From positions 1 through 51,484 of the IMG/VR virus record IMGVR_UViG_3300047409_000125: 51,484 nt of DNA. One strand, 5' to 3'. A program made the position numbers and the translations under genes. Positions within the stretch are counted from its first letter, which is position 1. The number at the start of each line of letters is the position of its first letter. Source of the stretch: a virus (lineage: Duplodnaviria; Caudoviricetes). Shown here piece by piece: positions 15,001-31,363 of this stretch. The notes below the pieces were generated by a model. That model worked only from the letters and a program-made list of their open reading frames with translations, had not been told where the DNA came from and did no database searches.

Positions 15001-16650
15001 TTCGTCAGTCCTCGCTTCCATCTCAGGCGGCTCGCCAGCATCTTCACCATTGGCGCGTTGATGCAGCCAGTTCATGTACTGGCCGTAATTGGAGTAGATT
15101 TTGTTCATCGTGCTGCCCATCAACCCCAATTCGTGTTCCCAGACACGAATGAGGCCGATGTTACCGGCAGCACGCGACAGTTCTGAAATGTTGCGGAACG
15201 TACCGGCAGCCGCGTCAGCGATCAAAGTGCGGCCTTGGCTGTCCTTGTAGTTGTTTGGATCGGAAGTGGCTTCGTGAAACTTGACCGCCATGTTGTTCTG
15301 GTCGAGAACGCCTTTTATTTCGGGGTTCTCGCTGATCATCTTGGCAGCTTCTTTTTTCTCAGGCAGACCCCAAGAGTTCCACTTGCCTTTGTTAGTATAG
15401 TCCCCGAGATCGTTGGTGCTGTTCTCGTACTTCACGGCAGGCGTACCGCCCAGCCAAGGTATGCTGACAGGCTTTGCGTAGTTGCTGACCGTGCCGTCTA
15501 CCTTCACGCTGCCATTGAGTGCTGCTTCGCCTGCGGGACCGGACAGCGTTTGCGGCAGCGACAAATCCGCTTGTTGGCGCTTGTAGCCGTTCACCATCTG
15601 GAATGCTTTTTTGAAGTTTCCTTCAGCCAGATTTTTATCGAACTCTTCCCTCTTGAGCGGGATGTTGCTTGGCGTCATGCCGAAAAACTGCGAGTTCTTG
15701 ATATCTTTCGCGCCATTCAGGAGATTGTTGCGGGCGCGTTCGTAATCGTTCTGGTTCGTCGCATCTTCAAGCTTCTGAAACAGCGGCGCGGCTTTTTCGA
15801 CATCCTTGCCTGCCTTGCTCATGAACTGATCGGTGTAGCCTTTGACACGATCAGCATGCGGCGTGGCTTGCAGAGCCATGTAGGTGCCGATGTTGCCTTG
15901 GTTCGCAACTTCGTCCACGGCATGTTCGATGACCGCAGCATTGTCGGCATGGGCATCGACCGGCGTGAAGAATTGCAGGTTCTTGGCGAGAGCCTGCGTG
16001 GTATTCTGTTGCGATATCTGTTCGCGCAGGCTTTTGATTTTATCCCGAATGGCGGGGAGCTTGGTTTCGGCGTCGTCCGCGATGGACTTGTTCCAGAACT
16101 TGGTCCAGTTGCCGGTGTCCTGAACCAAATCCTTTTCCTGCTTCAGTGCTTGGTTCAGGTTGTTTTGCAGTTCGTTTCCGACCGGGTTGAAATCCGGATT
16201 TCTGTAGTCGCGCCGCCAGTTGTCCTTGACTTCCTGATCACCGGGTGACGGTGCCGGTTGCGGTGCCTGTGCATTCGGGGCTGCCGTGACCGATGGCGTG
16301 CCGATTACCGGCTGTTGCGGCGAGCGTGACTGTGCGAGCAATACCGGCGGTGCAATCGAACCTGCCGGAATGACCGGTGCCACCCGTGGCTGCGATACCG
16401 ACAGGTCCGCGCCTTGCATCAGGTTGACCGGCTGGCCGGGGGCCGGTGCCAGCGATGCGACCCGCGTTCCCGGCGGTGTGTAGGTGGTGGAGAGCGGTGC
16501 CAGCAGCGCGGATGAAGTCTCAGGGAAGACCTGCTTGGTGGTCAAGGGGACCGCGCGTATCCCGTAGGTGGGATCGAGGCTGTAGGCCGGATTGAGGTTC
16601 GGGCTTTCAAGATCAGCCGCGTCGATCAGATCGCCGGTATCGTTGGCCAT
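12040..16650 (-). CDS. Large internal virion/DNA-ejection protein with a lytic transglycosylase (Rpf/SLT-like) domain
   Basis: 1536 aa; GESNNNY...SASGKYQM...TW...ATPAQQE...AHQLGAG, followed by Gly/Ala-rich hydrophobic segments. Confidence 0.75.
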   Translation of the reverse strand: MANDTGDLIDAADLESPNLNPAYSLDPTYGIRAVPLTTKQVFPETSSALLAPLSTTYTPPGTRVASLAPAPGQPVNLMQGADLSVSQPRVAPVIPAGSIAPPVLLAQSRSPQQPVIGTPSVTAAPNAQAPQPAPSPGDQEVKDNWRRDYRNPDFNPVGNELQNNLNQALKQEKDLVQDTGNWTKFWNKSIADDAETKLPAIRDKIKSLREQISQQNTTQALAKNLQFFTPVDAHADNAAVIEHAVDEVANQGNIGTYMALQATPHADRVKGYTDQFMSKAGKDVEKAAPLFQKLEDATNQNDYERARNNLLNGAKDIKNSQFFGMTPSNIPLKREEFDKNLAEGNFKKAFQMVNGYKRQQADLSLPQTLSGPAGEAALNGSVKVDGTVSNYAKPVSIPWLGGTPAVKYENSTNDLGDYTNKGKWNSWGLPEKKEAAKMISENPEIKGVLDQNNMAVKFHEATSDPNNYKDSQGRTLIADAAAGTFRNISELSRAAGNIGLIRVWEHELGLMGSTMNKIYSNYGQYMNWLHQRANGEDAGEPPEMEARTDEWSPDVIAGFKRIGKFNLDKSNETLERTRGVIDYIGAHAGNPMDVGFSRQATEHLKPIQDQAEQSARLEMDKRDRIIYKGRWFELPDIHSIPADTPGFVPAGSYAKSINSIVGSRFPPMPNNTAGNVGRLTPDALAAAARARQQQPPSPPAAVSPFTGGGTSPFPFAPNAPAGVPVVPPPAPQRRSMLDMINPISTAHAEEAPPVPVNLPGSWGVGGGAAPAAMPQPAVPAAVQPQVTPGFEPQSYKAGLGRGESNNNYAAPPPRNEAGEQLSSASGKYQMVDKTWNRVKPPGATAMRAMDATPAQQEAANDHLIIENSNALTKAGLPVNNFTMSVAHQLGAGKGGASSLLTAPDGDTALKYVDREAAKNNPKFFWEGGNGRLLTVAESKAKYASFYQTGGAASPKPLGDMTLSEMYKEARERKAAGLPQRTGEADRSGLQRGLQHAAADVVPAALQTGGQIVGGAVGGPAGAMAGGAIGRAIGDPARDYLSGDLDKQDASSLALSGLGGAVEGGIQSLPVGGVTGGLIRTGGASAVAGLTDYLQTNDPKHAINKGISTGVGTAAGELAGAGINKVVAPYLERLPIADHGPVKNAAEVIATQKAVTIDAKGNQVGNPAYMTAEGYLRSKGIDPKRIAADYEATAKGSTEFGPAVIKRPAEAARLDAAHELQQVPNAVGAAHANTPMGQRAGLNARIGRDVVNPVDAVVSDTNPHGTIPRGFEKEAKTAQDEMFKPSTNYGQAIDNMATARTHVLEEIRKTQEIPREAGKDYAQQDARIRGLTAISDHIRTQQETIIKHTLPPAQADALIEHLHQAGERYAKAMDAGRKDIIATIAKGGPEGTDAKNAFMGVAKNDPTAQRWMNAMVEAEKNKGGKGRDLVYILGTTAVGVGAIPYIGTPAGKAVGAVAATVGLSKLKSLWDNYMTMKAAGKMVNFDQLVRNNVTPYKQNIQSAASTLGGTVGGDVGDELARKKPTVQNRGARVPVSR

Positions 16651-19140: not shown

Positions 19141-19610
19141 CGCTTCATCAATTCCGCCAGATCAAATCCGGTCTTCATGCAATCGCTGACCGTGACGGTT
19201 TTGCTGGCGTCAAGTTCGGTGCACACCGCGTTGTAGACAATGGCATATTTGGCAATACGCAGCCTGCCATAAAGAAAATCCTCGCCTTTCTTCGTCACTC
19301 GCCACCAGCCTGCGCGACCACCATCTTCGCGTTCAACGCTTGCTTCCTCCAGCAATCCCCAGTAGGCCAGCTTGCCCTCTTCGTGCGACCGCAGCAATAG
19401 TGCCGGGATGTAGACCCATTCGAATTTTGACTGGTTGCCGCTCATGTAGATGCGCAACAGGGACTTGACCATTCCTGCATTGACCTTGCGACGATATCGT
19501 TTTGCAAACTGGCCGCAGCAGGGACAGGTCAACCCGTCGCCCAGCCGCGCACGCAACCGCGCTCTTGCATCACTTAGCGTTTCGGTACTTTCATCCCATG
19601 GCAATCTCAT
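19137..19610 (-). CDS. Zn-finger/winged-helix-like protein
   Basis: CPCCGQ...KLAYWGLLEE...GWWRVTKKGEDF. Confidence 0.65.
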   Translation of the reverse strand: MRLPWDESTETLSDARARLRARLGDGLTCPCCGQFAKRYRRKVNAGMVKSLLRIYMSGNQSKFEWVYIPALLLRSHEEGKLAYWGLLEEASVEREDGGRAGWWRVTKKGEDFLYGRLRIAKYAIVYNAVCTELDASKTVTVSDCMKTGFDLAELMKR

Positions 19611-19716
19611 TCCTCGTTCTCCTTACCATCACAGTGGCCCAAACAATACCATTGCCAGCAGCGCCAGTAATATGGCGGCGAATACCGCCGCCAGCATCAG
19701 CCATGCGTCCCTGCTG

Positions 19717-19860
19717 TCAATCATCCTCGTTCTCATCGTCCAGCAACGCCGTCAGTGCCATCTGCAATTTGGTGATGGCAGTGTCACGTTCCCTGCGCAG
19801 GACCGCCAGCAGGGCCGCTGCTATGACGCGGGCTATGTTGTCGCGAACTTCACTGTTCAT
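19717..19860 (-). CDS. Small hypothetical protein
   Basis: MNSEVRDNIARV..., ATGA-coupled. Confidence 0.45.
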   Translation of the reverse strand: MNSEVRDNIARVIAAALLAVLRRERDTAITKLQMALTALLDDENEDD

Positions 19861-20018
19861 TTTAAATACCGCCAATGTGTCGCCTTGAAATAAAACAGGC
19901 CGGGTGTGCCTTCGTCGGTATAGATACCTTTTTCCTCGCGCCGGAACATCCCTTCCTTGCCGGTGACCGGCTTCCACTCCGTTTCCGGAATGATTTTATC
20001 GCAGTATGGACATCGCAT
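19857..20018 (-). CDS. Small CxxC protein (MRCPYCDKII...), 53 aa
   Basis: Hand-translated; GGAG RBS; not in the ORF track. Confidence 0.5.
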   Translation of the reverse strand: MRCPYCDKIIPETEWKPVTGKEGMFRREEKGIYTDEGTPGLFYFKATHWRYLK

Positions 20019-20051
20019 GTAGGGTTCTCCAGCTAAAAATATTTGGGCTAA

Positions 20052-20263
20052 GTATACCTGTATACTAAAATTCTACAAGGGGTGTAATTCTATAGCCTGT
20101 CCGGCCCCGGCCTTGGCTTAACCGGTACCTGAACACGGTTGCACCACCTCTGAGCGCAAACCCGGTACCTTGCTGGCATCTGGTATACTGTATACCAGAT
20201 ACCAGATGCCACCGCCGTGGTATACAGTATACCAGATGCCAAGGCTGCTGGTATACTGTATAC
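20052..20263. repeat. GTATAC-doublet cluster A
   Basis: GTATAC[W]GTATAC at 20183, 20220 and 20251; 8-nt-spaced pair at 20052/20060; CCAGATGCC flanks. Confidence 0.85.
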
Positions 20264-20293
20264 AACACACCACATGCCAGAGCCGCGAATGGA

Positions 20294-20318
20294 CCGGATC
20301 GGGACTATCCCGATCCGG
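20294..20318. terminator. Perfect 11-bp hairpin after the leftward ORFs
   Basis: ccggatcggga-cta-tcccgatccgg; no clear U-tract. Confidence 0.45.
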
Positions 20319-20327
20319 CCTTAATCG

Positions 20328-20489
20328 TTAGTGGAGCAAGCGACCGTGGGTCAGCTTGTCGATTGTGACATAGATCACTAATACCAGTGGCGCAATGCAA
20401 ATCACCTTGGCGACGTGACTTGCAGCGCGCTCGCCGAATGCTAGTCCGATCAGGGCCAGCAACCCGGCGACCGTCAAGATTGAATGCAT
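20328..20489 (-). CDS. Small two-TM membrane protein
   Basis: MHSILTVAGLLALIGLAFG...LVLVIYV. Confidence 0.5.
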   Translation of the reverse strand: MHSILTVAGLLALIGLAFGERAASHVAKVICIAPLVLVIYVTIDKLTHGRLLH

Positions 20490-20500
20490 CAGTGACCGCC

Positions 20501-20824
20501 CTAGCGCGTTTTGCGACCGGTTAGATTGCAGCTGACCGCGACAGACTTGTAGCACCACTGGTCCCTGAAAACCTCTTCGCCAAAGTGAAGCTTGAGGAGA
20601 TCAGTAGCGGGCCGATCAGAAGTAACAGACTTGATGACCGCCGTGTGCTCCGTTCCGTTTATTCGTTTGGTTCCGGTTTTTTCATCGCAGGGAACGTCAG
20701 CTGCTTTGAGATAATCCTTAATCTGTTCCATCCTGTCTTCAAGTGGTGCAACCTGTGCTTTGAGTTGTGCCAACTCATCTACGAGAGCAGCTAACGCGAT
20801 TGCTGCAATTGGTTCATGTTTCAT
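20501..20824 (-). CDS. Hypothetical coiled-coil protein
   Basis: AGGAG RBS; LVDELAQLKAQVAPLEDRMEQIK. Confidence 0.65.
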   Translation of the reverse strand: MKHEPIAAIALAALVDELAQLKAQVAPLEDRMEQIKDYLKAADVPCDEKTGTKRINGTEHTAVIKSVTSDRPATDLLKLHFGEEVFRDQWCYKSVAVSCNLTGRKTR

Positions 20825-20892
20825 ATCGTTCAGTCTCCTATGTGATGTGGGATAATCCCACAACCTCATAGCGTATACAGTGGGGGCAACCA

Positions 20893-21324
20893 ATGTCCAG
20901 TGAATTAACCGTCTTTCACGCGGCGCGCACTGAGTTACAGCAAATCCTCGATGCTGGCGCAAAGGCACTAAAACAGCCCGGCCTCGAACTAATGCCAATC
21001 AAACGTGAAATGCTCGCACTTCCTACAGATGCAGCTGATTTAGTCCTAGATGCCTGCAATCTCCTGTTCGCCGCATGCCTGTCCTACGAGGGCGCTCAAT
21101 GGACAATCGACCGGGCATCCGATCCGATTCAACTTGTCCAATCCCGCATCGAACAGGGACGCGCGCTAGGCGTGGTCGAAAGCTTATTCTACGGTCCCAC
21201 ATTCGCACTCATCCTAGCCGCCCGCGACCGTGCGCCAATCGCATTCTACGCACTAGCCAAGTCATCGCCCGCCCTGCGCATAATTGACCGCGTTACCCAC
21301 AAGCTGACCGGGCGTCCCACCTAA
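20893..21324 (+). CDS. Hypothetical protein
   Basis: 143-aa ORF, GGGGG upstream. Confidence 0.5.
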   Translation: MSSELTVFHAARTELQQILDAGAKALKQPGLELMPIKREMLALPTDAADLVLDACNLLFAACLSYEGAQWTIDRASDPIQLVQSRIEQGRALGVVESLFYGPTFALILAARDRAPIAFYALAKSSPALRIIDRVTHKLTGRPT

Positions 21325-21990
21325 ACCCCACATCAAAACAGGGCTTTATCTTATGTGTTGTGGGGTTGGTGGGGTGGTGGGGATTGTATACGTAAGCTGT
21401 TGATATCGTTTAAACCCTTGTAAAACTACAGCATTCCGACACCTTGACCACACGGCCAGCTAGGATTTTATCCCTATTGCCTACATAAAACATACACACA
21501 TCAAGAGAAACGGCCTTTTTGACGTAGGGAAAATTAAAATAATCCAATAATTTCATAGACCGGTCATTTCAACCCTACCCGACAGGCACCCCTTGTAGGA
21601 CAGCTGTCGGACGAACTTGTCGGGTTGAAAGTCATCTGATAATCCGAAACAGCTAACATCACACATGCTAAGTCATTGATACTACTCATTAAACAATCCC
21701 ACACGGCCAGGTCGCCCTTACCACTAACCTATTGATATTGCTCAATAATCTATGACACTGAAGCGATATCGCTTGTGTGACGTTTACATCAGGTTGTAGT
21801 GGGATATCCCTACACCTGAGAACAAAAGGCGAAAACGCCACTGGTGCGTTATTTTGCCAAAACCGTATACAGACAGCCCGCATCTGTATGGCTATCCCAC
21901 AGCCCGCTAATTCAATCCTGTGCACGGTACCGTGTAACAATCCGTGATTTGCGATAACGCTATCATTTATGCTTTGATCGGTTGTTTCGT
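21325..21990. other. Longest non-coding, AT-richer region; candidate genome-end/early-promoter zone
   Basis: No credible ORF; three TAANNNNTTGATA motifs and several hairpins. Confidence 0.5.
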
Positions 21991-22014
21991 CACTCTCACT
22001 GGAGATTGTCTGCC

Positions 22015-22206
22015 ATGGTCATCCAAACTTCTTGCGGTCACTTCTATTCGGTCATCGATACCTTCGACGCTAACCTGTCTCACGTCTGGTATGGTCTGCC
22101 GGTCAAGAAGGTAAAAGGCGTTTGGCTTCACAAGACTTCGAAAAAAGGCGTCAAGATCGAGCTGGTCCGAAAGGAGGCAACCCGATTGATCGAAGCCACG
22201 CCATAG
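22015..22206 (+). CDS. Small early protein
   Basis: GGAG RBS; MVIQTSCGHFY... Confidence 0.6.
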   Translation: MVIQTSCGHFYSVIDTFDANLSHVWYGLPVKKVKGVWLHKTSKKGVKIELVRKEATRLIEATP

Positions 22207-22216
22207 CGCAATCAAC

Positions 22217-22284
22217 ATGGTCTTATGCCCGGCAGCTGAAAAGCTTACCGGGCATAAGGCATCAGGGAATGGTCCCTATGGAGG
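22217..22284 (+). repeat. Structured intergenic repeat, copy 1
   Basis: cttatgcccgg-c-agct-GAAA-agct-ta-ccgggcataag + GGGA-ATGG-TCCC + GGAGG. Confidence 0.9.
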
Positions 22285-22291
22285 TTTCAAG

Positions 22292-22570
22292 ATGCTTGAT
22301 CGCCACTATACTTTTTTCAGCGACATGGGCCATGGTTGGCTGCGCGTCACCATTGATGACTGCAAAGCTATTGGCCTGAGCAAATCCGACTTTAGCTGGT
22401 ACAGCTATGCCGATAAGGATTGGCTGTATCTTGAAGAGGATTGCGATGCTGCAAAGTTCATTGCGGCATACGTCAGAACGGTTGGCGAGATGCCGATTAT
22501 CCATGACGTTCACACCAATGGAAACAGCGTGATCCGATCCAAGGCACGCGTTGTGCAACGGAGGGCTTGA
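22292..22570 (+). CDS. Small early protein (DxGHGWLxV...LYLEEDCD type)
   Basis: GGAGG RBS from repeat 1. Confidence 0.75.
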   Translation: MLDRHYTFFSDMGHGWLRVTIDDCKAIGLSKSDFSWYSYADKDWLYLEEDCDAAKFIAAYVRTVGEMPIIHDVHTNGNSVIRSKARVVQRRA

Positions 22571-22573
22571 ACC

Positions 22574-22780
22574 ATGGCAACTTGGCATCAACAGCGAAGC
22601 CCGGTCAGATTGTACAGCGCAACGCATTGGGTTGTTGTGATCGATCCACCAAACGAATGCCGCAACTGCTATCTGGCAAGCACGCAAGAGGCTGCGGAAC
22701 GCTACCTAGAAAATCTCGCACTCAATCAACCGCGATTGGCTAAACATTCCTACATTCTCAGACCGACAGGGAAAAAGTAA
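22574..22780 (+). CDS. Small early protein
   Basis: GGAGG RBS, 68 aa. Confidence 0.65.
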   Translation: MATWHQQRSPVRLYSATHWVVVIDPPNECRNCYLASTQEAAERYLENLALNQPRLAKHSYILRPTGKK

Positions 22781-22781
22781 G

Positions 22782-22973
22782 ATGCAAATTTCATCCGCCA
22801 CAAAAGAAGAACTTGGATTGCTCATCAGCGGATTGCGAGCGATCTATATTCACAGTCAGGAACCATTGCGCCGCAAGCTTGCGGCTCAACTCGAAACCGA
22901 ATTGACAACGCGGTTTGGCTTGCGAGTTGGTGGTGATGACAATCAAGAGAGGAATATGGCCGATGACCGATAA
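22782..22973 (+). CDS. Small early protein
   Basis: Coupled, 63 aa. Confidence 0.55.
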   Translation: MQISSATKEELGLLISGLRAIYIHSQEPLRRKLAAQLETELTTRFGLRVGGDDNQERNMADDR

Positions 22974-23229
22974 AATCACCTATGGCGCTGGTGGTACCAC
23001 ATTCACCGGTCCGTTAGGCGTTGACGTATTTCAGGCTGCTGCATTGCGGTCCGGTCTAGGCTTGATGGCAGTCGGCATCAAGCCGCACCGGTCTTGGACA
23101 AGCCTGAAATTGGCACTGGACAAGGCAACATCCTACACCGGGCAAAAATATTCCGGCAAAAAGGACATTGAGCGAGCGCGGGCTGACCTGCAAACATTCG
23201 TTCAGGAATTGAAAGCCCAACTCGATTAG
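22963..23229 (+). CDS. Small early protein
   Basis: MTDKITYGAGG...GIKPHRSW. Confidence 0.65.
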   Translation: MTDKITYGAGGTTFTGPLGVDVFQAAALRSGLGLMAVGIKPHRSWTSLKLALDKATSYTGQKYSGKKDIERARADLQTFVQELKAQLD

Positions 23230-23240
23230 CACAATCAAAA

Positions 23241-23299
23241 TTGCGCTTATGCCCGGCAGCGAAAGCTTACCGGGCATGAGGCATTGGGAAATGGTTCCC
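23241..23299 (+). repeat. Structured intergenic repeat, copy 2
   Basis: cttatgcccggcagcgaaagcttaccgggcatgag + GGGAA-ATGG-TTCCC. Confidence 0.9.
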
Positions 23300-23318
23300 G
23301 ATCAGGATTGGACGCATC

Positions 23319-23546
23319 ATGAATGGACGAGACGTTAGAAGCATGACGAAAACACCAGAACTGCAACGCAGGCACTTTTGTTTCATTGCCAAGGTGCTGG
23401 CCGAAAGCAAACCCGAACCGCATTGGGACGCAAACAAGCTTGCCCAATGGCAATCGGTCGTTAACTCATTCATCGCGGCATGCCGCCGATCCAATGGCCG
23501 ATTTGACGCTGACCGGTTCCTTGAGGCATGCAGCCATGGCCGATGA
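23319..23546 (+). CDS. Small early protein (RRHF..IA...FDADRFLEAC type)
   Basis: 75-aa ORF after repeat 2. Confidence 0.65.
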   Translation: MNGRDVRSMTKTPELQRRHFCFIAKVLAESKPEPHWDANKLAQWQSVVNSFIAACRRSNGRFDADRFLEACSHGR

Positions 23547-23631
23547 TCCGGTCAGCGATTGGCTAGCATTGGCAACGCTGACCTTGTTCATTGCCTCAAT
23601 GGGCTTTGGCATTGCCTGCATTCTGAGTTGA
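23536..23631 (+). CDS. 31-aa membrane peptide
   Basis: MADDPVSDWLALATLTLFIASMGFGIACILS; GAGG RBS. Confidence 0.4.
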   Translation: MADDPVSDWLALATLTLFIASMGFGIACILS

Positions 23632-23664
23632 CAGGTAAAGCCCGATAGTGATAACGCTATCGGG
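23628..23664 (+). promoter_or_regulatory. Sigma70-type promoter overlapped by palindrome cccgatag-N8-ctatcggg
   Basis: TTGACAGGTAA...CGATAGTG, nearly identical to the promoter at 31335. Confidence 0.55.
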
Positions 23665-23685
23665 CTTTAACCTTTGGAGGTCAAA

Positions 23686-24615
23686 ATGGCTGATTTGAAC
23701 GATTCCCTGTCTAACCTGTTCGACGGTGATACCGGTCCGGTTCGCGTTGAGCCGATCCGCACCAATGCCGTTGAATACAAGCCTGCAACCGCTCGATTTG
23801 AAGAGGGCTGCGACAAGTGCAAAGGTACTGGCAATTTTACCAGCTGGTCCGGTCGCGTTGTCGGACAATGCTTTGCCTGCAAGGGCGCGGGAAAAAAGGT
23901 TTTCAAAACTTCGCCAATGACGCGGGAACAAAATCGCGAGCGGTCCGCAGAACGTAAGGCTGCGAATGCCGGTCAAAGCATGGTCGATTTTGCTGCTGCA
24001 CATCCCGATGTGCACGAATGGCTCAAGGCTGAAACCGCCAAGGCTGCACCATTCGCGTTTGCGGTCAGCATGGTTGAAGCAATCTGCAAGTATGGCGACT
24101 TAACCGATAAGCAATTGGCGACCTGTTACCGATTGGCTGCCAAAGCCAAGGAACGTATCGCCCAACGCGCTACGGCGGTCACCAGTGCCCCTAGCGTTGA
24201 TGTAAGCGCCATTGAGACAGCCTTTGCAAACGCTCGCTCCAAGGCTGCCAGACCGGGCCAGATGGGTATCATGGTTAAGCCGCTCAAGCTTGCTGCCGGT
24301 CCGTCAAAGGAAGATATCGCTTTCAAGGTATCTCCCGGTTCAATCGGCAGCCAATGGGAAGGACAGGTTTTCTTCAAGTCAATCGATGGGGACCGTAAAC
24401 TTGGTTATGTGAAAGACGGTCGCTTTGTTCGGCAGTTCGCTTGCACAGATGCAGAAGCGCAAGCGGTAGTGACTGTTGCGAGCAATCCCAAGGAAGGCTT
24501 GATTGCCTATGCCAAGGCTTGGAGCAAGTGCGGCGTATGTGGCCGTGGTTTGCTCAATGACGAAAGCATCGAGCGCGGGATCGGTCCCATCTGTTTTGCA
24601 AAACTTGGGTTCTAG
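23686..24615 (+). CDS. DUF6011-like protein with an N-terminal CxxCxGxG zinc finger
   Basis: CDKCKGTG...CFACKGAG; C-terminal CGVCGRGLLNDESIERGIGPIC. Confidence 0.75.
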   Translation: MADLNDSLSNLFDGDTGPVRVEPIRTNAVEYKPATARFEEGCDKCKGTGNFTSWSGRVVGQCFACKGAGKKVFKTSPMTREQNRERSAERKAANAGQSMVDFAAAHPDVHEWLKAETAKAAPFAFAVSMVEAICKYGDLTDKQLATCYRLAAKAKERIAQRATAVTSAPSVDVSAIETAFANARSKAARPGQMGIMVKPLKLAAGPSKEDIAFKVSPGSIGSQWEGQVFFKSIDGDRKLGYVKDGRFVRQFACTDAEAQAVVTVASNPKEGLIAYAKAWSKCGVCGRGLLNDESIERGIGPICFAKLGF

Positions 24616-24624
24616 ATTTTCGAC

Positions 24625-24689
24625 ATTGGTTCAAGCCCGGCAGCGAAAGCTTACCGGGCTTGGGGCAATAGGGAATAGTCCCTTGGAGG
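24625..24689 (+). repeat. Structured intergenic repeat, copy 3
   Basis: ttcaagcccggcagcgaaagcttaccgggcttggg + GGGA-ATAG-TCCC + GGAGG. Confidence 0.9.
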
Positions 24690-24697
24690 TTTGAACA

Positions 24698-24877
24698 ATG
24701 GCTGTCACGCGCAAAATTACTTTCGAATATCGTCCCAACGCTGGCATGGGAGCCAAGCCCTATCATTGCGTGAAAATCATCAACAGTACCGAATACAAGC
24801 CCGGTGAATGGTTTGACGCAGAGACCGTTGAAAACCTGTGCCGATCCAATCATTGGGACGTGACGATAACGACCTAG
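24698..24877 (+). CDS. Small early protein, 59 aa (MAVTRKITFEYRPN...)
   Basis: Hand-translated; fills exactly the space between repeats 3 and 4. Confidence 0.7.
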   Translation: MAVTRKITFEYRPNAGMGAKPYHCVKIINSTEYKPGEWFDAETVENLCRSNHWDVTITT

Positions 24878-24883
24878 CCAAAT

Positions 24884-24952
24884 CACATCGCGTTCAAGCC
24901 CGGCAGCGAAAGCTTACCGGGCTTGGAGCAATAGGGAATGGTCCCTTGGAGG
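24884..24952 (+). repeat. Structured intergenic repeat, copy 4
   Basis: Same core + GGGA-ATGG-TCCC + GGAGG. Confidence 0.9.
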
Positions 24953-24960
24953 TTAAAGCA

Positions 24961-25209
24961 ATGCCAAAGAAAACTTACTTTCGCGGAACGTTGACGCTGG
25001 TCATCGATGACAGCAACAGCGACACCCCCGCAATGGTCTATGCCCGGCGAGAAAAATTCGCATCAACGTATGACTGCGCCACTAGCGAAGGAATGGTTGA
25101 TGACGAACATCAACTATCAGAGGCTGATCTTGAATGGTTGGAAAGTCACCGTGACAAGGTGGAACGTGCTTTCGAAATTGCCCGAAAGGACCATCCCGAA
25201 TATTCCTGA
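24961..25209 (+). CDS. Small acidic early protein (MPKKTYFRG...)
   Basis: Between repeats 4 and 5, with RBS. Confidence 0.7.
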   Translation: MPKKTYFRGTLTLVIDDSNSDTPAMVYARREKFASTYDCATSEGMVDDEHQLSEADLEWLESHRDKVERAFEIARKDHPEYS

Positions 25210-25215
25210 TCCAGT

Positions 25216-25270
25216 CACATCGCGTTCAAGCCCGGCAGCGAAAGCTTACCGGGCTTGGGGCAATAGGAGG
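25216..25270 (+). repeat. Structured intergenic repeat, copy 5 (lacks the second hairpin)
   Basis: 44 nt identical to copy 4, then directly AGGAGG. Confidence 0.9.
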
Positions 25271-25272
25271 AA

Positions 25273-25485
25273 ATGCAAATGAGCATCGAAAGCAAGCTTT
25301 GGAAAGTGGTTTCCTATGGGATGCAGATTGCAGTGCTGCAAAAAGCATCTGGGATGCAGCGTTTCGTAACAATCGGAAAATTTCCGAATAGCGAAGCACT
25401 GGCAGCAATGAGCGAGCGACAATTTGACCGGTTATGCCGTGAAACGTTTCATGACGAACCAAAACAGCGAAAGGGAATATGCTAA
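25273..25485 (+). CDS. Small early protein
   Basis: RBS from repeat 5. Confidence 0.6.
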   Translation: MQMSIESKLWKVVSYGMQIAVLQKASGMQRFVTIGKFPNSEALAAMSERQFDRLCRETFHDEPKQRKGIC

Positions 25486-25892
25486 TGGATACCTTACGAG
25501 CGATCAAAAAACGGGATGCTGCAATCGGTCGATTGCGTGACCTGTATAGCAGCGCGGAAAGTTTTGGCTTCACGTCCGCGACAATCAATGAGCGGTTCAG
25601 CGCAATCAATGCTGACCTGTACAAATGCCCATCATGGGTTCGGGAATATGTCGGCGGTTATCGCCGATGCCTTGATGACATGCTCTATCGCTACAAGCTT
25701 GTGCACGGCGGTTTTTATGCGGAAAAATTTTATTCGACGCATTCAAACCGATATGACTACTACGGCAGCAATGGAATTGATGCTGTCGATTATGCCGACA
25801 ATGGCCGCGTTACATTGCGCGGCCACTACTGGATCAAGCACGTTGACAAGGGCAACCCGAAACCGTTTTTTACAATGGAGAACGACCGATGA
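25479..25892 (+). CDS. Hypothetical early protein
   Basis: 137 aa, coupled. Confidence 0.65.
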   Translation: MLMDTLRAIKKRDAAIGRLRDLYSSAESFGFTSATINERFSAINADLYKCPSWVREYVGGYRRCLDDMLYRYKLVHGGFYAEKFYSTHSNRYDYYGSNGIDAVDYADNGRVTLRGHYWIKHVDKGNPKPFFTMENDR

Positions 25893-26302
25893 AACAGCGA
25901 CCGGAAATTATGCTTTGGCTTGACGACCATCGCGGGCAATATATCCCGCGCGACTTTGCGCAATCGTTCGTTGACCGCGCTAGCGCGGTCACAGGCGTAT
26001 CTGACGACCAATGGGCGATCTTAGAAGCTGGTCCAGTTGGCGGATTAGACAGCGAAGGCGATGGCAGCGAATACTATTGGGAAGTGTGGCAAGAGGTTTG
26101 CGACTACGCCATAGTGACAGACGAGCACGGCAACAAATATCGCATTCATCAGGATGGCGCTTGCTGGCTGATCCCTGATGGAATGGAATGGTCCGATCAA
26201 GATGATTGGTTCAGATGGCCCGATGACAGCGATCCCGAATACGAGCACGAGGACAAGCTTGATCCGCCGGGATGGGAAGGCGGGTTTGCCGATAACCATT
26301 GA
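25889..26302 (+). CDS. Acidic Trp-rich early protein
   Basis: DDHRGQYIPRDFA...YWEVWQEV; ATGA overlap. Confidence 0.7.
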   Translation: MKQRPEIMLWLDDHRGQYIPRDFAQSFVDRASAVTGVSDDQWAILEAGPVGGLDSEGDGSEYYWEVWQEVCDYAIVTDEHGNKYRIHQDGACWLIPDGMEWSDQDDWFRWPDDSDPEYEHEDKLDPPGWEGGFADNH

Positions 26303-26307
26303 AACCC

Positions 26308-26336
26308 AAAGCCCGGCATTGCTGCCGGGCTTTTTT
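26308..26336 (+). terminator. Rho-independent terminator closing the early array
   Basis: aaaGCCCGGCA-ttgc-TGCCGGGC-TTTTTT. Confidence 0.85.
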
Positions 26337-26522
26337 CATGCCCTAGCGCGGCTCACTGGTGCGTTATTCCGAACAGCCCGCTAGGTGGATGCCCGGACAG
26401 TGTAAGGCCATTCACCGGGCTTCTAATCGAACAATGACACTAATCGACCTGGACGATTGCGCTATCGTAAAGCTTGAACCTTTCGCTGGGATGTGGTGAC
26501 CAATAGACAGGAAGGAATGATA

Positions 26523-26708
26523 ATGCAGGAACGTGACATCCTATTCGAGCGCGGTCCTTACTGGATCAAGGCTGCCGATACCTTCGTAGGCTTTGAAGTG
26601 TATCGTACGATACAAATCCATAGCGTGCGCGTTGCGTCGATTGGCTGGACCGGAACCGCCGGGCTGGATCGGGCAAAGGCGGAGATAGAGCGCCGCATTG
26701 CACAATAA
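26523..26708 (+). CDS. Small hypothetical protein
   Basis: AAGGA RBS; MQERDILFERGPYW. Confidence 0.6.
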   Translation: MQERDILFERGPYWIKAADTFVGFEVYRTIQIHSVRVASIGWTGTAGLDRAKAEIERRIAQ

Positions 26709-26727
26709 CGAGTGCGGCGCAGCATGA

Positions 26728-26783
26728 TGCTGGTATACAGTATACTGTATACCACCAGCGGTGGCATCTGGTATACAGTATAC
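26728..26783. repeat. GTATAC cluster B (triplet + doublet)
   Basis: GTATAC at 26733, 26740, 26747, 26771 and 26778. Confidence 0.85.
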
Positions 26784-26841
26784 AAAATGCCAGCCGGGTG
26801 CGCGGCGGATCGCCCCGCGCCGCCGGGCCGGGAGTGGAGCG

Positions 26842-27002
26842 GAAAAAGCATGCTTTTTTATACAGGCGAAAAAAGCATGCTTTTTTCCTGCCCCATGGGC
26901 CAATAGCCGGGCGAGAAAAAGCATGCTTTTTATACAGGCGAAAAAAGCATGCTTTTTTGATTGCGCTATCGCTATTGGCGTGCAATAAAAAGCATGCTTT
27001 TT
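26842..27002. repeat. Five AAAAAGCATGCTTTTT palindromes; candidate origin/operator array
   Basis: GCATGC cores at 26848, 26875, 26921, 26947 and 26992. Confidence 0.85.
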
Positions 27003-27018
27003 ACTCAGGGAGGTTCCA

Positions 27019-27216
27019 ATGCCTACATACTATGACGACAACTACGGCTTCTGGCACGGCATGGATGACCCGGACAAGGTGGCGTTCTACCATGAGGTAC
27101 AGCGCAACAGCGTCCGCAAGAAGTGCGAGCGTTGCAATCGCATGGTCAAGATCAGGCGCGACTACGCCATCTGCAATGCGTGCGCGGAGGAGATGGAACG
27201 TGGGGGAGACTGGTGA
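27019..27216 (+). CDS. Small zinc-finger protein
   Basis: GGAGG RBS; CERC...CNAC. Confidence 0.65.
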   Translation: MPTYYDDNYGFWHGMDDPDKVAFYHEVQRNSVRKKCERCNRMVKIRRDYAICNACAEEMERGGDW

Positions 27217-27392
27217 TGGCAGACGTTTCATTTTGCCCATGCGGCAGCGGATATCGCGCAGAGCCGCAGTTCGATGGCTATGCCATCTTCCTGTGCTACA
27301 CCTGCCCGCGCTGTCATGAAAAAAGCATGCTTAGATACCGTCGCGACATTCACGAACGGTATGAATGCGACGAACCGATTGACGAAGAATAG
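27216..27392 (+). CDS. Small CPCGSG/CxxC protein
   Basis: TGATG coupling; CPCGSG...CPRC. Confidence 0.6.
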   Translation: MADVSFCPCGSGYRAEPQFDGYAIFLCYTCPRCHEKSMLRYRRDIHERYECDEPIDEE

Positions 27393-27440
27393 CGGAGTGC
27401 TAATGTCCGCTATCGTACATTTCCTCCGAAAGCCATCATC

Positions 27441-29711
27441 ATGACACGGACAGAACTCGTCAGGCTGGCGCGCGACCTGTACACAACGCACGGCCTGATG
27501 CCTGTTCCGGTCGCTGGCAAGGTTCCGCTTGGTGGCATGGGCTGGAACCAGCTGCCGATTGATGCACGCCTTGCCATCGCAGCCAGCGAAAGCTGCACCG
27601 GCATCGGCATGCAGATGGGATTGATCTTTCATCCCGTGCTGGGACCGAAGGAAGCGAGAACAATAGACTGCGATATAGACGACCGGCAAAAAAGCATGCT
27701 TTTTGCTGGTACCCTGAACAACTACTTCCACCCTACGCATTGGCGTTGGGGCAGGCGACCGGCCACGCTGGTGTTCACTGATCCCGGTGTCATCAAGCGT
27801 GAGAAGTTTGGTGACGTGCAGTTGCTGGGCAGCGGCAAGCAGGTTGTCTACTGGGGCGACTACCTGAACAAGTTGCCATTGCTGACTGACCCCCGCGAAT
27901 ACTGGATGGAAGGCACATCAATCTTTGATCTGATGCCGCCAGTGGTGCCCGCAGGCGTGCTGCAATCGGCACTGGAAGCCGGGGTAACCGCCGCTGGTTA
28001 TACAACGCAGTCAAGGCAAATTGAAGCCGCTCCGCTCAGTGCGGATGATCTGGCGATGCTGAACGGCGATATCCTCAATCAGTTCCGTTCCGACATGCAA
28101 AGCATGCTGGACGACATAGACCGGTCGCCAACAGGCTCTGGCCGGGGCACCAAGCTGCACCGGCTGGGCATCAAGTACGGTGCGCTGATCAAGGCCAGCG
28201 GCAACGCACCGGCACTGGTGGACGCGGCACGCATCTCACCGGACTTCGTGGACTACGCGCCCATCAGCAACCCGGTGCTGGCCGAAATAGGACAGATGGC
28301 TGAAGATGCCTTTGCGCTGCTGCCGGGTTCGTTGGGTCAGGGTGACAGACGTGATTTCGCACGCGGTGTAGGCGCATCGATGGGGCTGGCGCAAGGCGTG
28401 GAGGTTCGCAAGGCGAAGACCCCTTTATTACTGCCCACTGGGCGCGACCACCCCGGTCAGACCGTCCATGACCTGATGCTGGAAAATCTTCCACCGTTGA
28501 AATTTCTGGTGGACAGGTACCTGACCGACAGCGGTTGCGTCATCCTCGCAGGTAAGCCAAAGATAGGCAAAGGGTGGATTGTTCTTGAACTGGGGATGTG
28601 CATCGCTGAAGGAAGCCAGTTCTGGGACCGGCAATGTACCCAAGGCGAAGTCCTGATGTACATGCTTGAGGACAACAAGCGCCGGGTGAGAGAGCGCATC
28701 CGCATCCTGCGGCCAGCTGGTTTCAATCCTTCATCCAAGATGCGCTTCCGCTATTCGGCAGACGGTCCCTTCTTCATCGATAGCGACGGTACCGGCACGT
28801 TGCTGGATGACATGCGCAAGCACATGACCGACTTTCCAGCCATCCGGTTCATCGTGGTTGACGTGCTGCAACGGGTTCGCGGCAAGGTCGAGCGTTCGGA
28901 CAACGCCTATCAGATCGACTACAAGGTGATTGGTGCGCTACAGAAATTCGCAGCCGGGTTCAGCGTGATGATTTTGGTTGTGCATCACGTCAAAAAGGGT
29001 AGAGTGGATGACGCTATCGATAGCGTTAACGGTTCATTTGGCGTGGCTGGTGCGGCTGACGGCGCTATCATTATCGGCAGGGAAGGCGGCATAGTACGGA
29101 TCGAAAGCAGGATGCGCGACATTCCCGATTTCGAATTTGATCTGATAAAGGAAAATGGAAGCCCAATGTGGAAGCCTGCACAAACCGTGGAAGAACTGCT
29201 TGGACCGACTGAAGGTACCAAGACGCAAGCCGTGATGCTGGCGCTGCACGCCGCTGCATGCTGCCTGACAGCTGGCGATCTTGGCGTTCGAACCGGTATC
29301 AGCGAAAAGAATGCTGCGACCTATCTGGTCCGCTTGATGAAGACCAATCAGGTATCGCGACCGTCGCGCGGCTGGTACATGGCTGTCGGACTGCCATATC
29401 GCGAACGGATCAAGGGGGTTATTGACGTACTGAAACGAATGCCCAAGACCGTGGCAACCGCCGACATCAAGGCCAAGTACGGACCCAACGTCGCACCACT
29501 TGAAGCTACCTACATGATCCTGACCCCTGTGGCGATCAAGGAAATCGAGGCTGGCTTCGTTGACGGCAAGGACTGCCTGAACAGCCTGAAGTTTCGTGGT
29601 CTGGCCGTATTTAATAGCGACACCACTTGGCTGATTGGCGATGACTGGGAACCAGCACAGCCGGTCATGAAAGAAAACCCGTTTGCTCAACAGAGGATGC
29701 CTTGGCAATGA
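27441..29711 (+). CDS. Primase-polymerase (PrimPol-like) fused to a RepA/AAA_25-type helicase
   Basis: PVPVAGKVP..GIG..IDCD N-domain; GKPKIGKG Walker A, FIVVD Walker B, VHHVKKG. Confidence 0.8.
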   Translation: MTRTELVRLARDLYTTHGLMPVPVAGKVPLGGMGWNQLPIDARLAIAASESCTGIGMQMGLIFHPVLGPKEARTIDCDIDDRQKSMLFAGTLNNYFHPTHWRWGRRPATLVFTDPGVIKREKFGDVQLLGSGKQVVYWGDYLNKLPLLTDPREYWMEGTSIFDLMPPVVPAGVLQSALEAGVTAAGYTTQSRQIEAAPLSADDLAMLNGDILNQFRSDMQSMLDDIDRSPTGSGRGTKLHRLGIKYGALIKASGNAPALVDAARISPDFVDYAPISNPVLAEIGQMAEDAFALLPGSLGQGDRRDFARGVGASMGLAQGVEVRKAKTPLLLPTGRDHPGQTVHDLMLENLPPLKFLVDRYLTDSGCVILAGKPKIGKGWIVLELGMCIAEGSQFWDRQCTQGEVLMYMLEDNKRRVRERIRILRPAGFNPSSKMRFRYSADGPFFIDSDGTGTLLDDMRKHMTDFPAIRFIVVDVLQRVRGKVERSDNAYQIDYKVIGALQKFAAGFSVMILVVHHVKKGRVDDAIDSVNGSFGVAGAADGAIIIGREGGIVRIESRMRDIPDFEFDLIKENGSPMWKPAQTVEELLGPTEGTKTQAVMLALHAAACCLTAGDLGVRTGISEKNAATYLVRLMKTNQVSRPSRGWYMAVGLPYRERIKGVIDVLKRMPKTVATADIKAKYGPNVAPLEATYMILTPVAIKEIEAGFVDGKDCLNSLKFRGLAVFNSDTTWLIGDDWEPAQPVMKENPFAQQRMPWQ

Positions 29712-29842
29712 AAAAGAAAGAAATGGATGAGTGGCTGAAAAAGTTCGCAGCTATCATGGATGACGGCGAAAAAAGCAAAGCATTTAAAAAGTATATCGAA
29801 CAGCGAAAGAAAGAACTCAAAGATGAAGATCACAATTCCTAA
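29708..29842 (+). CDS. Small hypothetical protein, 44 aa
   Basis: Hand-translated MKKKEMDEWLKKF; ATGA overlap. Confidence 0.45.
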   Translation: MKKKEMDEWLKKFAAIMDDGEKSKAFKKYIEQRKKELKDEDHNS

Positions 29843-30254
29843 AATTCTGGCTGGTGGTGTTGGCTTGTTTTCATTGATGTTTGTATTTGCGCTGGTGCGC
29901 GTCGAGACATCGGAGACACGCCAGACCGCAGCGATGCATGAAGTCAAGAAGGCGATTACTGAAGTGATCAACGTGGTCGAAGTGCCTGAAGCCACCAAAA
30001 TCTGGGCATTGAAACGCGGTTACCAGTTGAATGGCAATTCAATGGTGGGACCGACAATTGATCTGACCAAGGAAAGCCCTGACACCAAGGTTATTGAAAC
30101 CATTGTAGTGAAGCCGGATGAACTCAACGAAATCGACAGGGCCATGCCGGTCGAGAAGATACAGGCGCAGACGCCGGTCGAAACCAATGTCTGCACCCGT
30201 CACGGCATGAAGAAAGTCGTCAAGGGCGATAGCTGGCATTGCCGAAGACTTTAG
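29823..30254 (+). CDS. Membrane-anchored hypothetical protein
   Basis: N-terminal TM; C-terminal CTRHGMKKV..SWHC. Confidence 0.6.
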   Translation: MKITIPKILAGGVGLFSLMFVFALVRVETSETRQTAAMHEVKKAITEVINVVEVPEATKIWALKRGYQLNGNSMVGPTIDLTKESPDTKVIETIVVKPDELNEIDRAMPVEKIQAQTPVETNVCTRHGMKKVVKGDSWHCRRL

Positions 30255-30648
30255 CCCTGTGAACCTTGCACCATGATCCGTTGTTTACTGCCGGGCCGCC
30301 ACAATAGAAACCACCGCGTTTTTCGACCGGCCACAGTGGAAACCTGCAATCGCCATCGCGCAGTTCGTAAATGGTCAACTTCATGCCGGGAATGCGTTTC
30401 TTGACGACCGGTGTGATTGCGGCCATCACTTCTTTCTTCAATCGCGGCTGCACCATGTTCTTGCGCGCCCTTATACCCAGTCGTCTTCCCCTTCCGATAC
30501 AGCTACCCTTGGTAAACGTTACGCCAAATCTGTCGGTCATGATCTTGGCGATCTTGGTGTATGACACACCCGGATTTTCTTCGACCAGCTTCTTCAGTTC
30601 TTCGTCAGCCTCTGTGGTCCAGATAATTCCATTGTTGTTCTTCCGCAT
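30220..30648 (-). CDS. gcrA: GcrA-family cell-cycle regulator
   Basis: WT...LKKL..S...IA...TKGSCIGRGRRLG and LTIYEL...CRFP...FYCG...SWC..H. Confidence 0.85.
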   Translation of the reverse strand: MRKNNNGIIWTTEADEELKKLVEENPGVSYTKIAKIMTDRFGVTFTKGSCIGRGRRLGIRARKNMVQPRLKKEVMAAITPVVKKRIPGMKLTIYELRDGDCRFPLWPVEKRGGFYCGGPAVNNGSWCKVHRAKVFGNASYRP

Positions 30649-30651
30649 CTG

Positions 30652-30680
30652 TTGACTTCCCTTTTCCGATAGCGTATCCG
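30652..30680 (+). promoter_or_regulatory. Sigma70-type promoter with CGATAGCG box
   Basis: TTGACT-17-TATCCG. Confidence 0.5.
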
Positions 30681-30706
30681 ATAACTGTTAACAACAGGGG
30701 GGTACG

Positions 30707-30916
30707 GTGTCAATATCGGAAATCATCTATACAGTCGTGAGAGAAGACGGTATCTACGAAGTGCTGAGAGTAGACGGTACCCACAACTACGTAGTTGTTC
30801 AAACCAACATCCGGACAAAAGAGAAGGCAATCGAAGCATGCAGGACATGGCAACAGAGACAGACAGAAAGCCATACGACTTCGCTACTATCGGAGAACAA
30901 ATCGCAGCAGCCCTGA
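30707..30916 (+). CDS. Hypothetical protein
   Basis: 69 aa, GTG start. Confidence 0.45.
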   Translation: MSISEIIYTVVREDGIYEVLRVDGTHNYVVVQTNIRTKEKAIEACRTWQQRQTESHTTSLLSENKSQQP

Positions 30917-31098
30917 TCGAAGCCGCTGAAAATCAGGTGACCGCAGCTAACAACGTGCTGGCGAATGCCACAGTCGTTGCTGACGGCATCCGGGCGCAAA
31001 TTAAAAACCAGTCGGACTTGCTGGACAACGCCAACTCTCGTTTGATGTTGTTTAGCGATAGCGTCACTCAAGCCTACAATAAGTTCAACGGCGAATAA
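30838..31098 (+). CDS. Hypothetical coiled-coil protein
   Basis: 86 aa, TAATG coupling to the next gene. Confidence 0.6.
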   Translation: MQDMATETDRKPYDFATIGEQIAAALIEAAENQVTAANNVLANATVVADGIRAQIKNQSDLLDNANSRLMLFSDSVTQAYNKFNGE

Positions 31099-31355
31099 TG
31101 TACCCTTGGGAACGGCCCAAGCCATTTGACTACGTTGCTTTCATGAATACGCATATCCGCGTATCTGTTACTGTCAACGGCATGCTGAAAGGTTTGTTTG
31201 CTGTACTGGATGACGGTACTGATATGAACGTCAGTACCGTCATGCCAGACGGCACACCGCTTGTTTTCAAGGTTGAGGGACACCCCCGGACCACAGACCC
31301 GATAATGACACCAGTCCAGCTGGTAAACTATGTGTTGACAGGTAATAAGCGATAG
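31098..31355 (+). CDS. Hypothetical protein
   Basis: 85 aa. Confidence 0.55.
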   Translation: MYPWERPKPFDYVAFMNTHIRVSVTVNGMLKGLFAVLDDGTDMNVSTVMPDGTPLVFKVEGHPRTTDPIMTPVQLVNYVLTGNKR

Positions 31356-31363
31356 CGTATACG
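31335..31363 (+). promoter_or_regulatory. Sigma70-type promoter with CGATAGCG box
   Basis: TTGACA-17-TATACG; ATG 6 nt downstream (possibly leaderless). Confidence 0.6.

Follow-up and report, generated by a model that had tools for sequence, protein, structure and literature searches.

Phage early regions are rich in small genes whose expression and exchange are little understood. In HK022 and lambda, the early transcripts carry cis-acting hairpins, put and nut, of which put consists of two stem-loops and nut includes boxB with its GNRA-like loop; both genomes have two such antitermination sites, one per operon and near the promoter. In T4-type phages, the so-called promoter-early stem-loop (PeSL) cassettes are made up of ORFans of a hyperplastic region, set between conserved intergenic elements of ~60-100 nt (PMC2839356). 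In the cluster K mycobacteriophages, a start-associated sequence (SAS), a 13-bp GGGATAGGAGCCC-type motif that contains the Shine-Dalgarno (SD) sequence, is located 3-7 bp from the start codon (PMC3203893), and in the ESAS an imperfect inverted repeat is placed just upstream of the SD-containing motif (PMC3203893; PMC12699233). Here we describe a hairpin-forming element that is found in five copies between the small genes of a tailed soil phage, IMG/VR record IMGVR_UViG_3300047409_000125. The record is a complete viral genome of 51,484 bp with direct terminal repeats (DTR), and the whole of it is referred to below as the window. The element represents a previously undescribed, well-supported structured RNA family, for which we tentatively favour a role in processing the early transcript.

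The five copies are found where an initial annotation, made from the sequence of the window, had placed them. All are co-oriented and intergenic, and all are on the + strand within 22207-25278. They are listed here with the two open reading frames (ORFs) that they enclose singly, as the annotation had indicated; scores are those of model R2, which comprises 34 matches (the smaller model, R1, comprises 11 copies).

22207-22291, + strand: copy 1, R2 score 67 bits; hairpin 1 at 22220-22260 (AGCU-GAAA-AGCU), hairpin 2 at 22264-22277, SD GGAGG at 22280-22284, ATG at 22292
23230-23318, + strand: copy 2, R2 score 71.3 bits; hairpin 1 at 23243-23282, hairpin 2 at 23283-23302, weak SD AGGA, ATG at 23319
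24616-24697, + strand: copy 3, R2 score 70 bits; hairpin 1 at 24625-24669, hairpin 2 at 24670-24683, GGAGG at 24685-24689, ATG at 24698
24698-24877, + strand: single-ORF cassette, 59 aa, between copies 3 and 4
24878-24960, + strand: copy 4, R2 score 68.4 bits; hairpin 1 at 24890-24929, hairpin 2 at 24933-24946, GGAGG at 24948-24952, ATG at 24961
24961-25209, + strand: single-ORF cassette, 82 aa, between copies 4 and 5
25210-25278, + strand: copy 5, R2 score 69.7 bits; hairpin 1 at 25222-25261, no hairpin 2, AGGAGG at 25265-25270, ATG at 25273 or 25279

The 25-nt core, GCCCGGCAGCGAAAGCTTACCGGGC, reported as identical in copies 2-5, is indeed exact at 23251, 24635, 24898 and 25230, and was matched in 0 of 100 shuffles; in copy 1, the apical stem AGCT-GAAA-AGCT gains one additional pair. 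The nearby upstream stop codons end at 22206, 23229, 24615, 24877 and 25209, which is 7-12 nt before the point from which the initial annotation had counted each copy. GGAGG or AGGAGG follows copies 1, 3, 4 and 5, while copy 2 has AGGA alone. The outer stems compensate for one another's changes (CTTAT/ATAAG in copy 1, CTTAT/ATGAG in copy 2, TTCAA/TTGGG in copies 3 and 5, TTCAA/TTGGA in copy 4), and the U·G pairs among them exist on the + strand only. The description of the element as a two-hairpin module holds for its first half: hairpin 1 and its flanks are conserved throughout the family, whereas hairpin 2 has the form described in copies 1-4, is missing from copy 5, and among relatives varies in sequence and size.

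The 21-nt core was also found in 4 further IMG/VR contigs, 2 Bradyrhizobium genomes and 27 metagenome contigs. Of the latter, 21 (soil or rhizosphere) fit the full covariance model. The remaining 6 have the core without its flanks and were taken as chance matches, as were the core matches in Blautia, Verrucomicrobiia and Gemmatimonadetes (3 of the 5 genome matches), which are in coding regions and also have no flanks. One Bradyrhizobium locus, L014, has four consecutive intergenic copies, three of them with another apical stem and a UUCG or longer loop. An 18-mer from this variant identified 7 more IMG/VR contigs, 5 of which fit the covariance model, giving 9 IMG/VR contigs with the element besides the window. 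When 121 genomes sampled from the same genus as L014 were searched with R2, 14 matched at E <= 0.01 and 11 at E <= 1e-6, with 0-3 matches per genome that are clustered and often ~430 nt apart; 150 other genomes sampled from the same order produced 3 weak matches only. Two loci with weak R2 matches, L082 and L083, have the look of an ordinary terminator and of a non-member, and were excluded from the alignment used below.

The L014 array is part of a prophage with portal, capsid-protease, large terminase, methylase and primase-helicase genes. Judging from these genomes, the element is a feature of phages and prophages of Bradyrhizobium-type hosts and not a host-wide repeat, and this distribution suggests a host of the same type for the window phage. 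A host repeat of the REP/BIME type is ruled out by the 0-3 clustered matches per Bradyrhizobium genome and the prophage location of the L014 copies; a CRISPR-repeat mimic (RNA anti-CRISPR) is likewise ruled out, with at most 3 R2 matches per Bradyrhizobium genome and no repeat arrays. The family has a clear signature, strong covariation, a link to the shuffling of single-gene cassettes and a defined host clade, Bradyrhizobium being agriculturally important nitrogen fixers. Moreover, lysogens that bear the array exist in culture collections, which makes its function directly testable.

No known family accounts for the element, in agreement with the initial annotation, which had not recognised it. 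Rfam 15 gave no match at the gathering score across the whole window. With E values up to 10, the search of 22100-25400 returned only two chance snoRNA matches, away from the elements, and that of eight related loci only tRNA and a weak sraL match, elsewhere than the elements. BLASTN of window positions 20001-28000 against isolated phages found no match, and the titles and abstracts of the open-access literature yielded analogues only, with no description of the element. Domain V of a group II intron was rejected for lack of an Rfam match.

The anatomy of the family was derived from 50 sense-strand matches, the rows of a model-fitted alignment, A5. A stop codon is followed in order by a spacer, the basal stem, CCCGG, an internal loop, the apical stem, a tetraloop, CCGGG and a YRUYAG linker. 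The 5' spacer is single-stranded and includes a weak ACAUCG motif; extension of the stem into this motif would add 2-4 further pairs, which are ~50% paired in either register. The basal stem has 5-8 covarying pairs, with a 3' strand (YUUGAGG) that is more conserved than the 5' strand. In 36 of 49 rows, a Y·U mismatch is seen ~10 steps below the loop; the window's five copies have a Watson-Crick pair there. The (G)CCCGG/CCGGG(C) helix is nearly invariant. In the internal loop, the 5' side is C in 43 of 50 matches and the 3' side is UA in 36, UU in 7 and CA in 3. The apical stem has 2-5 covarying pairs (AGC/GCU, GGC/GCC, GGUC/GACC or GC/GC), and its tetraloop is of the GNRA class in 37 of 50 and of the UNCG class in 8 of 50. 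The linker gives way to purines and usually to a short second hairpin, which has no conserved sequence and is at times absent, and then to an SD and a start codon; by a crude rule, under which a few calls are doubtful, an SD-preceded ORF start is found within 75 nt downstream in 39 of 50 matches. At A5 columns 20-24 and 72-76, a conserved SD-like GAGG of the 3' basal strand pairs with a CCUC-like, i.e. anti-SD-like, 5' strand; no start codon occurs at SD distance from this GAGG.

Several of the conserved nucleotides are unpaired, namely the 5' ACAUCG, the C and UA of the internal loop and YRUYAG, as might be expected of a new self-cleaving ribozyme or another catalytic or tertiary RNA, and intergenic locations in phages are typical of small ribozymes. 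Nevertheless, no known ribozyme family matched, even with E values allowed up to 10. The element folds into a simple hairpin, for which no pseudoknot is supported and in which the extension pairs are only ~50% paired, and hairpin 2 is not conserved. Catalysis is thus a highly improbable explanation.

The initial annotation had pointed to covariation among the five copies, and the family as a whole bears this out. In A5, 84.3% of the cells are paired, compared with 76.5 +/- 0.7 in shuffles; two-sided changes are found in 14 of 16 pairs, compared with 8.9 +/- 1.1; and the covariation score is 0.283, compared with 0.147. None of these three values was reached in any of 500 shuffles, and when the partner was shifted by 1-3 columns, pairing fell to 26-57%. 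Given that A5 leans towards the model, the count was redone on 48 of the 50 rows, aligned with MAFFT without regard to structure; a copy cut by a contig end and a copy lacking the apical part were left out. This alignment gave 83.4% paired cells against 73.8 +/- 0.8, a covariation score of 0.340 against 0.166 and, again, two-sided changes in 14 of 16 pairs, with 0 of 500 shuffles reaching the values. These counts are drawn from related sequences and are not to be taken as probabilities, although the controls are mutually consistent. The two alignments agree, and a structured sense-strand element with real covariation is supported.

Folded as RNA, the five copies have energies of -26 to -38 kcal/mol (z from -2.95 to -4.77). 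Since the minus strand is about as stable (z from -3.3 to -5.3), folding energy by itself gives no strand, which was judged from other features. There are 54 G·U pairs versus 30 A·C, and GNRA and UNCG are loop classes known for RNA stability. On the sense strand, 25 of 50 copies have a same-strand stop codon, closing an open frame, at 10-20 nt from the start of the basal stem, most often 14-16 nt upstream of it; on the antisense strand, 1 of 50 does. When the distance is widened to 0-30 nt, the counts are 38 versus 11. Taken together, the excess of G·U, the RNA-type loops and the spacing from the stop codon favour an element of sense-strand RNA. At 14-16 nt, the size of the ribosome footprint would set the stem just outside a terminating ribosome, so that translation of the upstream ORF would not melt the hairpin.

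All five elements belong to a block of small + strand ORFs.

22015-26708, + strand: small-ORF array, a putative early accessory operon of ~17 ORFs, from the ORF list and translations

The initial annotation had suggested that homology between the elements could let single-gene cassettes be gained or lost, and the genes enclosed by the repeats do vary: three Bradyrhizobium prophages differ in the order or presence of cassettes, and G130, the nearest relative found, is without the entire array. This relative (51,247 bp, with DTR) shares 50-93% aa identity with the window over its head, tail, terminase and replication genes, which are arranged as in the window. Both genes that flank the array are retained, a 143-aa ORF (60% identity) and the primase (58%), as are the AAAAAGCATGC palindromes that precede the primase. 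R2 found no match in G130, and none of the array ORFs has a homologue there; its synteny in the absence of the array marks the latter as an accessory, replaceable block. At the site of the array, G130 (L093-L095) has ~2 kb that include a homologue of window ORF 10348-11031, an ORF that sits elsewhere in the window genome.

In the prophages, with E for the element and F for a gene family, the order is E-F17-E-F3-E in L075, E-F3-E-F17-E in L077 and E-E-F3-E in L079. Their BLASTN blocks, at 76-88% identity, start or stop in elements, and apical stem-loops have been exchanged between otherwise homologous elements. A further gene family, F2, is directly upstream of the element in L007 and L042 and not in L085. 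By analogy with the PeSLs, this pattern fits recombination inside the elements. Two tRNA genes, at 2863-2935 of L077 and 2538-2609 of L079, are 1-1.5 kb or less from the prophage arrays and may mark the integration sites.

Breakpoints of this kind could also be produced by a site that acts as DNA, i.e. a single-strand hairpin or palindrome (attC- or ssi-like) used by a recombinase, a nickase or a replication protein, to which the RNA features would be incidental. The extrahelical bases and the mismatch, as well as the folding of the minus strand, which equals that of the plus strand, are compatible with such a site. It would not explain why G·U exceeds A·C, why UNCG and GNRA loops dominate or why the spacing to same-strand stops is fixed, and the aligned copies contain no RYYYAAC/GTTRRRY core sites; we therefore consider it very unlikely. 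As to the integron case in particular, attC core sites are defined as RYYYAAC...GTTRRRY. The aligned copies show CCUCAYG...CUUGAGG, without core sites, and attC was rejected; an integrase was not searched for.

Among the described systems, PeSL cassettes resemble the array in that nearest relatives differ by presence or absence of the region and cassettes are reshuffled between the elements (PMC2839356). The window element likewise flanks ORFans in a hyperplastic region with cassette shuffling, as seen in G130 and in L075, L077 and L079. Unlike it, a PeSL is described as having a strong sigma-70-like promoter along with its terminator stem-loop (PMC2839356). A sigma-70 promoter in the element was rejected, as none of the 6 promoter-like sites of 19500-31500 falls within an element and manual reading revealed no -10 with A2/T6 at the required spacing. 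L010, a locus related to the window through its DUF6011 protein alone, has four copies of a 73-nt repeat between 8409 and 10885, in which a TTGACA-17-TATAGG promoter, a hairpin, GGAGA and an ATG follow one another; it is PeSL-like and occurs at comparable places. The repeat and the window element occupy the same niche with different solutions. The same locus also has, at 9634-9856, long tandem arrays of an 11-nt unit, GGCGGTTTATT, beside its DUF6011 homologue.

The likeness to SAS and ESAS is in the single orientation of the repeats and in their position before non-structural genes of varied families; their function is reported as still unverified (PMC3203893; PMC12699233). The core of the window element, in contrast, is anchored to the upstream stop and is 30-75 nt before the next start, which is outside the 3-7 bp that define SAS. 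The hosts belong to another phylum, and there is no sequence similarity.

A search of phages and plasmids with a short query returned, besides chance matches of 19-27 nt, only a hairpin of Pakpunavirus. It is identical at 22 of 23 nt to the apical CCCGG-x-AGC-GAAA-GCT-TA-CCGGG and is found in 109 of 114 matching phage records, all of them Pseudomonas phages. The sequence TCTTTGTT comes after it, and some of the records label the hairpin a terminator; in phage EPA1, it is between convergent genes, with a T-rich tail and a terminator annotation. On the other hand, it occurs once per genome, with no covarying basal stem and no YRUYAG linker, and its likeness to the element is probably that of a convergent stable hairpin. 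Hairpin 1 may nonetheless be read along these lines, as a partial terminator, attenuator or pause site that grades expression across the array in the manner of the stem-loop half of a PeSL. PeSL stem-loops work as terminators (PMC2839356), and the 3' flank of the GC helix in the window element often begins with YUU. No T-run follows, however; none of the 5 copies is among the 13 terminator-like sites of our scan; the would-be U-tract positions sit in the covarying basal stem, with YRUYAG beyond; and neither the scan nor manual reading found a promoter consensus downstream from which transcription could restart. Attenuation is thus an unlikely reading. As the main function, intrinsic termination was rejected, because the 3' flank is paired and then continues into YRUYAG instead of a T/U run. 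The family may have arisen from a hairpin of the terminator type, or may in part still work as one.

The closest correspondence is with phage T7, to which the initial annotation had compared the element. The T7 record was retrieved and four of its early intergenic regions were folded; the resulting hairpins, which we take to be the early-region RNase III sites (R0.3-R1.3), are not annotated as such in the record used, and their layout proved comparable to that of the element. In both, several co-oriented copies are found between small early genes, with the hairpin a few nt past a stop codon and a ribosome-binding site (RBS) soon after. An intercistronic site directly past the upstream stop codon, as in T7-type RNase III sites, is what the element displays. 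In the T7 hairpins, the copies agree in the sequence of a ~10-bp upper stem, below which come an irregular region and a lower stem that varies; the element has a conserved upper part of 9 pairs plus the small loop, in most rows (though not in the window's own copies) a mismatch ~10 steps below the terminal loop, and a covarying lower stem. A T7-type site would be expected to have a helix of about two turns, irregular at the cut ~10-11 bp from the loop; hairpin 1 has 14-16 modelled pairs plus 2-4 optional ones. The two differ in that they share no sequence similarity, the element having its GC-rich CCCGG helix, C/UA loop and GNRA/UNCG cap. Furthermore, the element is spread over phages without shared proteins, and cleavage is known for T7 and predicted here.

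Given this likeness to the logic and geometry of T7, the leading mechanism is a T7-like intercistronic processing and stability site that is cut by host RNase III and doubles as a recombination linker, to which we give somewhat less than an even chance. It takes as its starting point what is observed directly: the structure, its covariation and fixed position, the distribution of the family and the shuffling of cassettes in relatives. It is also in keeping with the absence of any promoter or terminator consensus on the elements. The five repeats would then constitute a cis-acting structured RNA module in a polycistronic early mRNA. Hairpin 1, an irregular helix of ~17-20 bp with an invariant GC-rich middle, the C/UA internal loop and a stable tetraloop, would form 14-16 nt past the upstream stop, just outside the terminating ribosome, where a host endoribonuclease, most probably RNase III, would recognise and cut the helix. 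The upstream cistron would be left with a protective 3' hairpin, while the downstream one would begin with its own short hairpin 2 and SD, and each small gene would become an insulated, separately stable and translatable unit. As a secondary, evolutionary effect, the ~60-nt element would provide a patch of homology for the gain, loss and reordering of cassettes, through which phages of Bradyrhizobium-type hosts could trade them. That there is a single mRNA, that it is cleaved, which nuclease does so and how stability is affected are inferred. The interpretation in the initial annotation, a cis-acting module that processes, stabilises or anti-terminates the early transcript, is on the whole partly supported, its mechanism by analogy only. 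Should the element be a portable insulator or processing site, it would make a useful expression part for alphaproteobacteria.

A number of points weigh against RNase III processing. RNase III is largely indifferent to sequence, and the near-invariance of CCCGG / C / UA / CCGGG across unrelated phages would go unexplained. At 14-20 bp, the helix is short and irregular for a classical RNase III substrate, and the copies of the window itself have a Watson-Crick pair in place of Y·U. Hairpin 2, absent from copy 5 and from some relatives, is dispensable, and this makes a 3' hairpin on one product plus a 5' hairpin on the other less convincing. The near-identical apical hairpin of Pakpunavirus (22/23 nt) comes with a U-tract, convergent genes and a terminator annotation. 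Lastly, the covariation counts rest on related sequences, and A5 was fitted to the model.

Because the T7-like mechanism leaves the near-invariance of the C/UA loop and the GC helix unexplained, a more specific recognition is indicated. One form that this could take, which we hold to be improbable, is that the invariant CCCGG / C / UA / CCGGG serves as the address tag of a recombinase-free, RNA-defined cassette system in Bradyrhizobium phages. The tag would recruit a specific, conserved host machine, such as RNA polymerase (as a per-gene antiterminator), or a nuclease or ribosome-associated factor that has so far had no connection with sites of this kind. Any ORF behind the element would then be expressed whatever its context, and unrelated phages could trade ORFs through the same sequence.

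Candidate factors were sought by comparing the window's proteins with 16 loci, a prophage and four phage records, of which two are complete and two partial. At 1e-5, only short tail-fibre matches and distant replication matches are common to the window and other element-bearing genomes, remote homology not having been tested, and the window's array ORFs have no homologue in those genomes at the same threshold. The 309-aa DUF6011 protein is the only array ORF with homologues elsewhere, in L009-L011, which are without the element. A common phage-encoded binding protein is therefore unlikely, with no shared candidate at 1e-5 and remote homology untested; a conserved host factor is the more economical reading. 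In keeping with a host nuclease, an RNase III gene is present in the Bradyrhizobium host G006, and none is present in phage records G000, G001 and G003. The finding also shows that one regulatory RNA can be arrived at independently by, or passed between, phages that infect the same host clade but are otherwise unrelated. Mimicry of a host structural RNA was rejected: when the pattern CCGGYNNNGNRANNNYACCGG was searched in four Bradyrhizobium genomes, complementary apical stems were found in prophage copies only.

A host factor, be it a conserved protein or RNA polymerase, might also bind the C/UA loop in the GC helix directly, and the site would then serve as a processive antiterminator of the put/nut kind or as a translational operator or enhancer for the next gene. 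The internal loop and its flanking pairs are nearly invariant over phages without shared proteins, the conserved GAGG of the 3' strand pairs with the CCUC-like 5' strand, and read-through might be required by a strong hairpin within the operon.

23636-23669, + strand: strong hairpin with a 13-bp stem, not a member of the family, read from the sequence

This hairpin follows a 31-aa hydrophobic ORF and directly precedes the RBS of the 309-aa DUF6011 / zinc-ribbon gene in the same operon; with too few T in its tail, it is not in the list of the terminator scan.

For processive antitermination, one copy per gene would be redundant, and no arginine-rich, N-like protein is found among the array ORFs. 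The element also differs from put and nut, which occur once per operon, in that the identity of its loop is not conserved: 8 of 50 copies have UNCG in place of GNRA, and the loop can therefore not be the determinant. In addition, no host RNA of the same architecture was found in the four Bradyrhizobium genomes, and the SD of the next gene falls outside hairpin 1. A protein or polymerase site of this kind thus has a small, though not negligible, probability.

As for the setting of the array, a regulatory, non-coding stretch (~20.1-22.0 kb) is upstream of it and a replication module is downstream, with a primase/helicase (27441-29711), a helicase, an exonuclease and a DNA polymerase; tail, head and terminase genes are on the opposite strand of the window. 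From this position alone, it is reasonable to regard the array as early, and its genes are presumably carried on one transcript. The two cassette ORFs at 24698-24877 and 24961-25209 match no PHROG family.

Two sets of palindromes were noted around the array. Clusters of the perfect palindrome TGGTATACAGTATACCA at 20170-20285 and 26725-26805 flank the whole 6.5-kb early region on both sides; they form 53-nt arms that are 83% complementary, with an imperfect copy near 21866-21893, and look like operators of a single repressor controlling both ends of the region. A second palindrome, AAAAAGCATGCTTTTT, occurs in 5-6 copies at 26843-27003 and 27688-27704, i.e. ahead of the primase/helicase gene and shortly after its start. 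It is kept at the same place in G130 (L093 1152-1350), and may represent an origin or sites for binding of an initiator. Finally, a 1536-aa ORF in the structural region (12040-16650, - strand) belongs to no Pfam or PHROG family, and its counterpart in G130 shows merely 28% identity over 535 residues.

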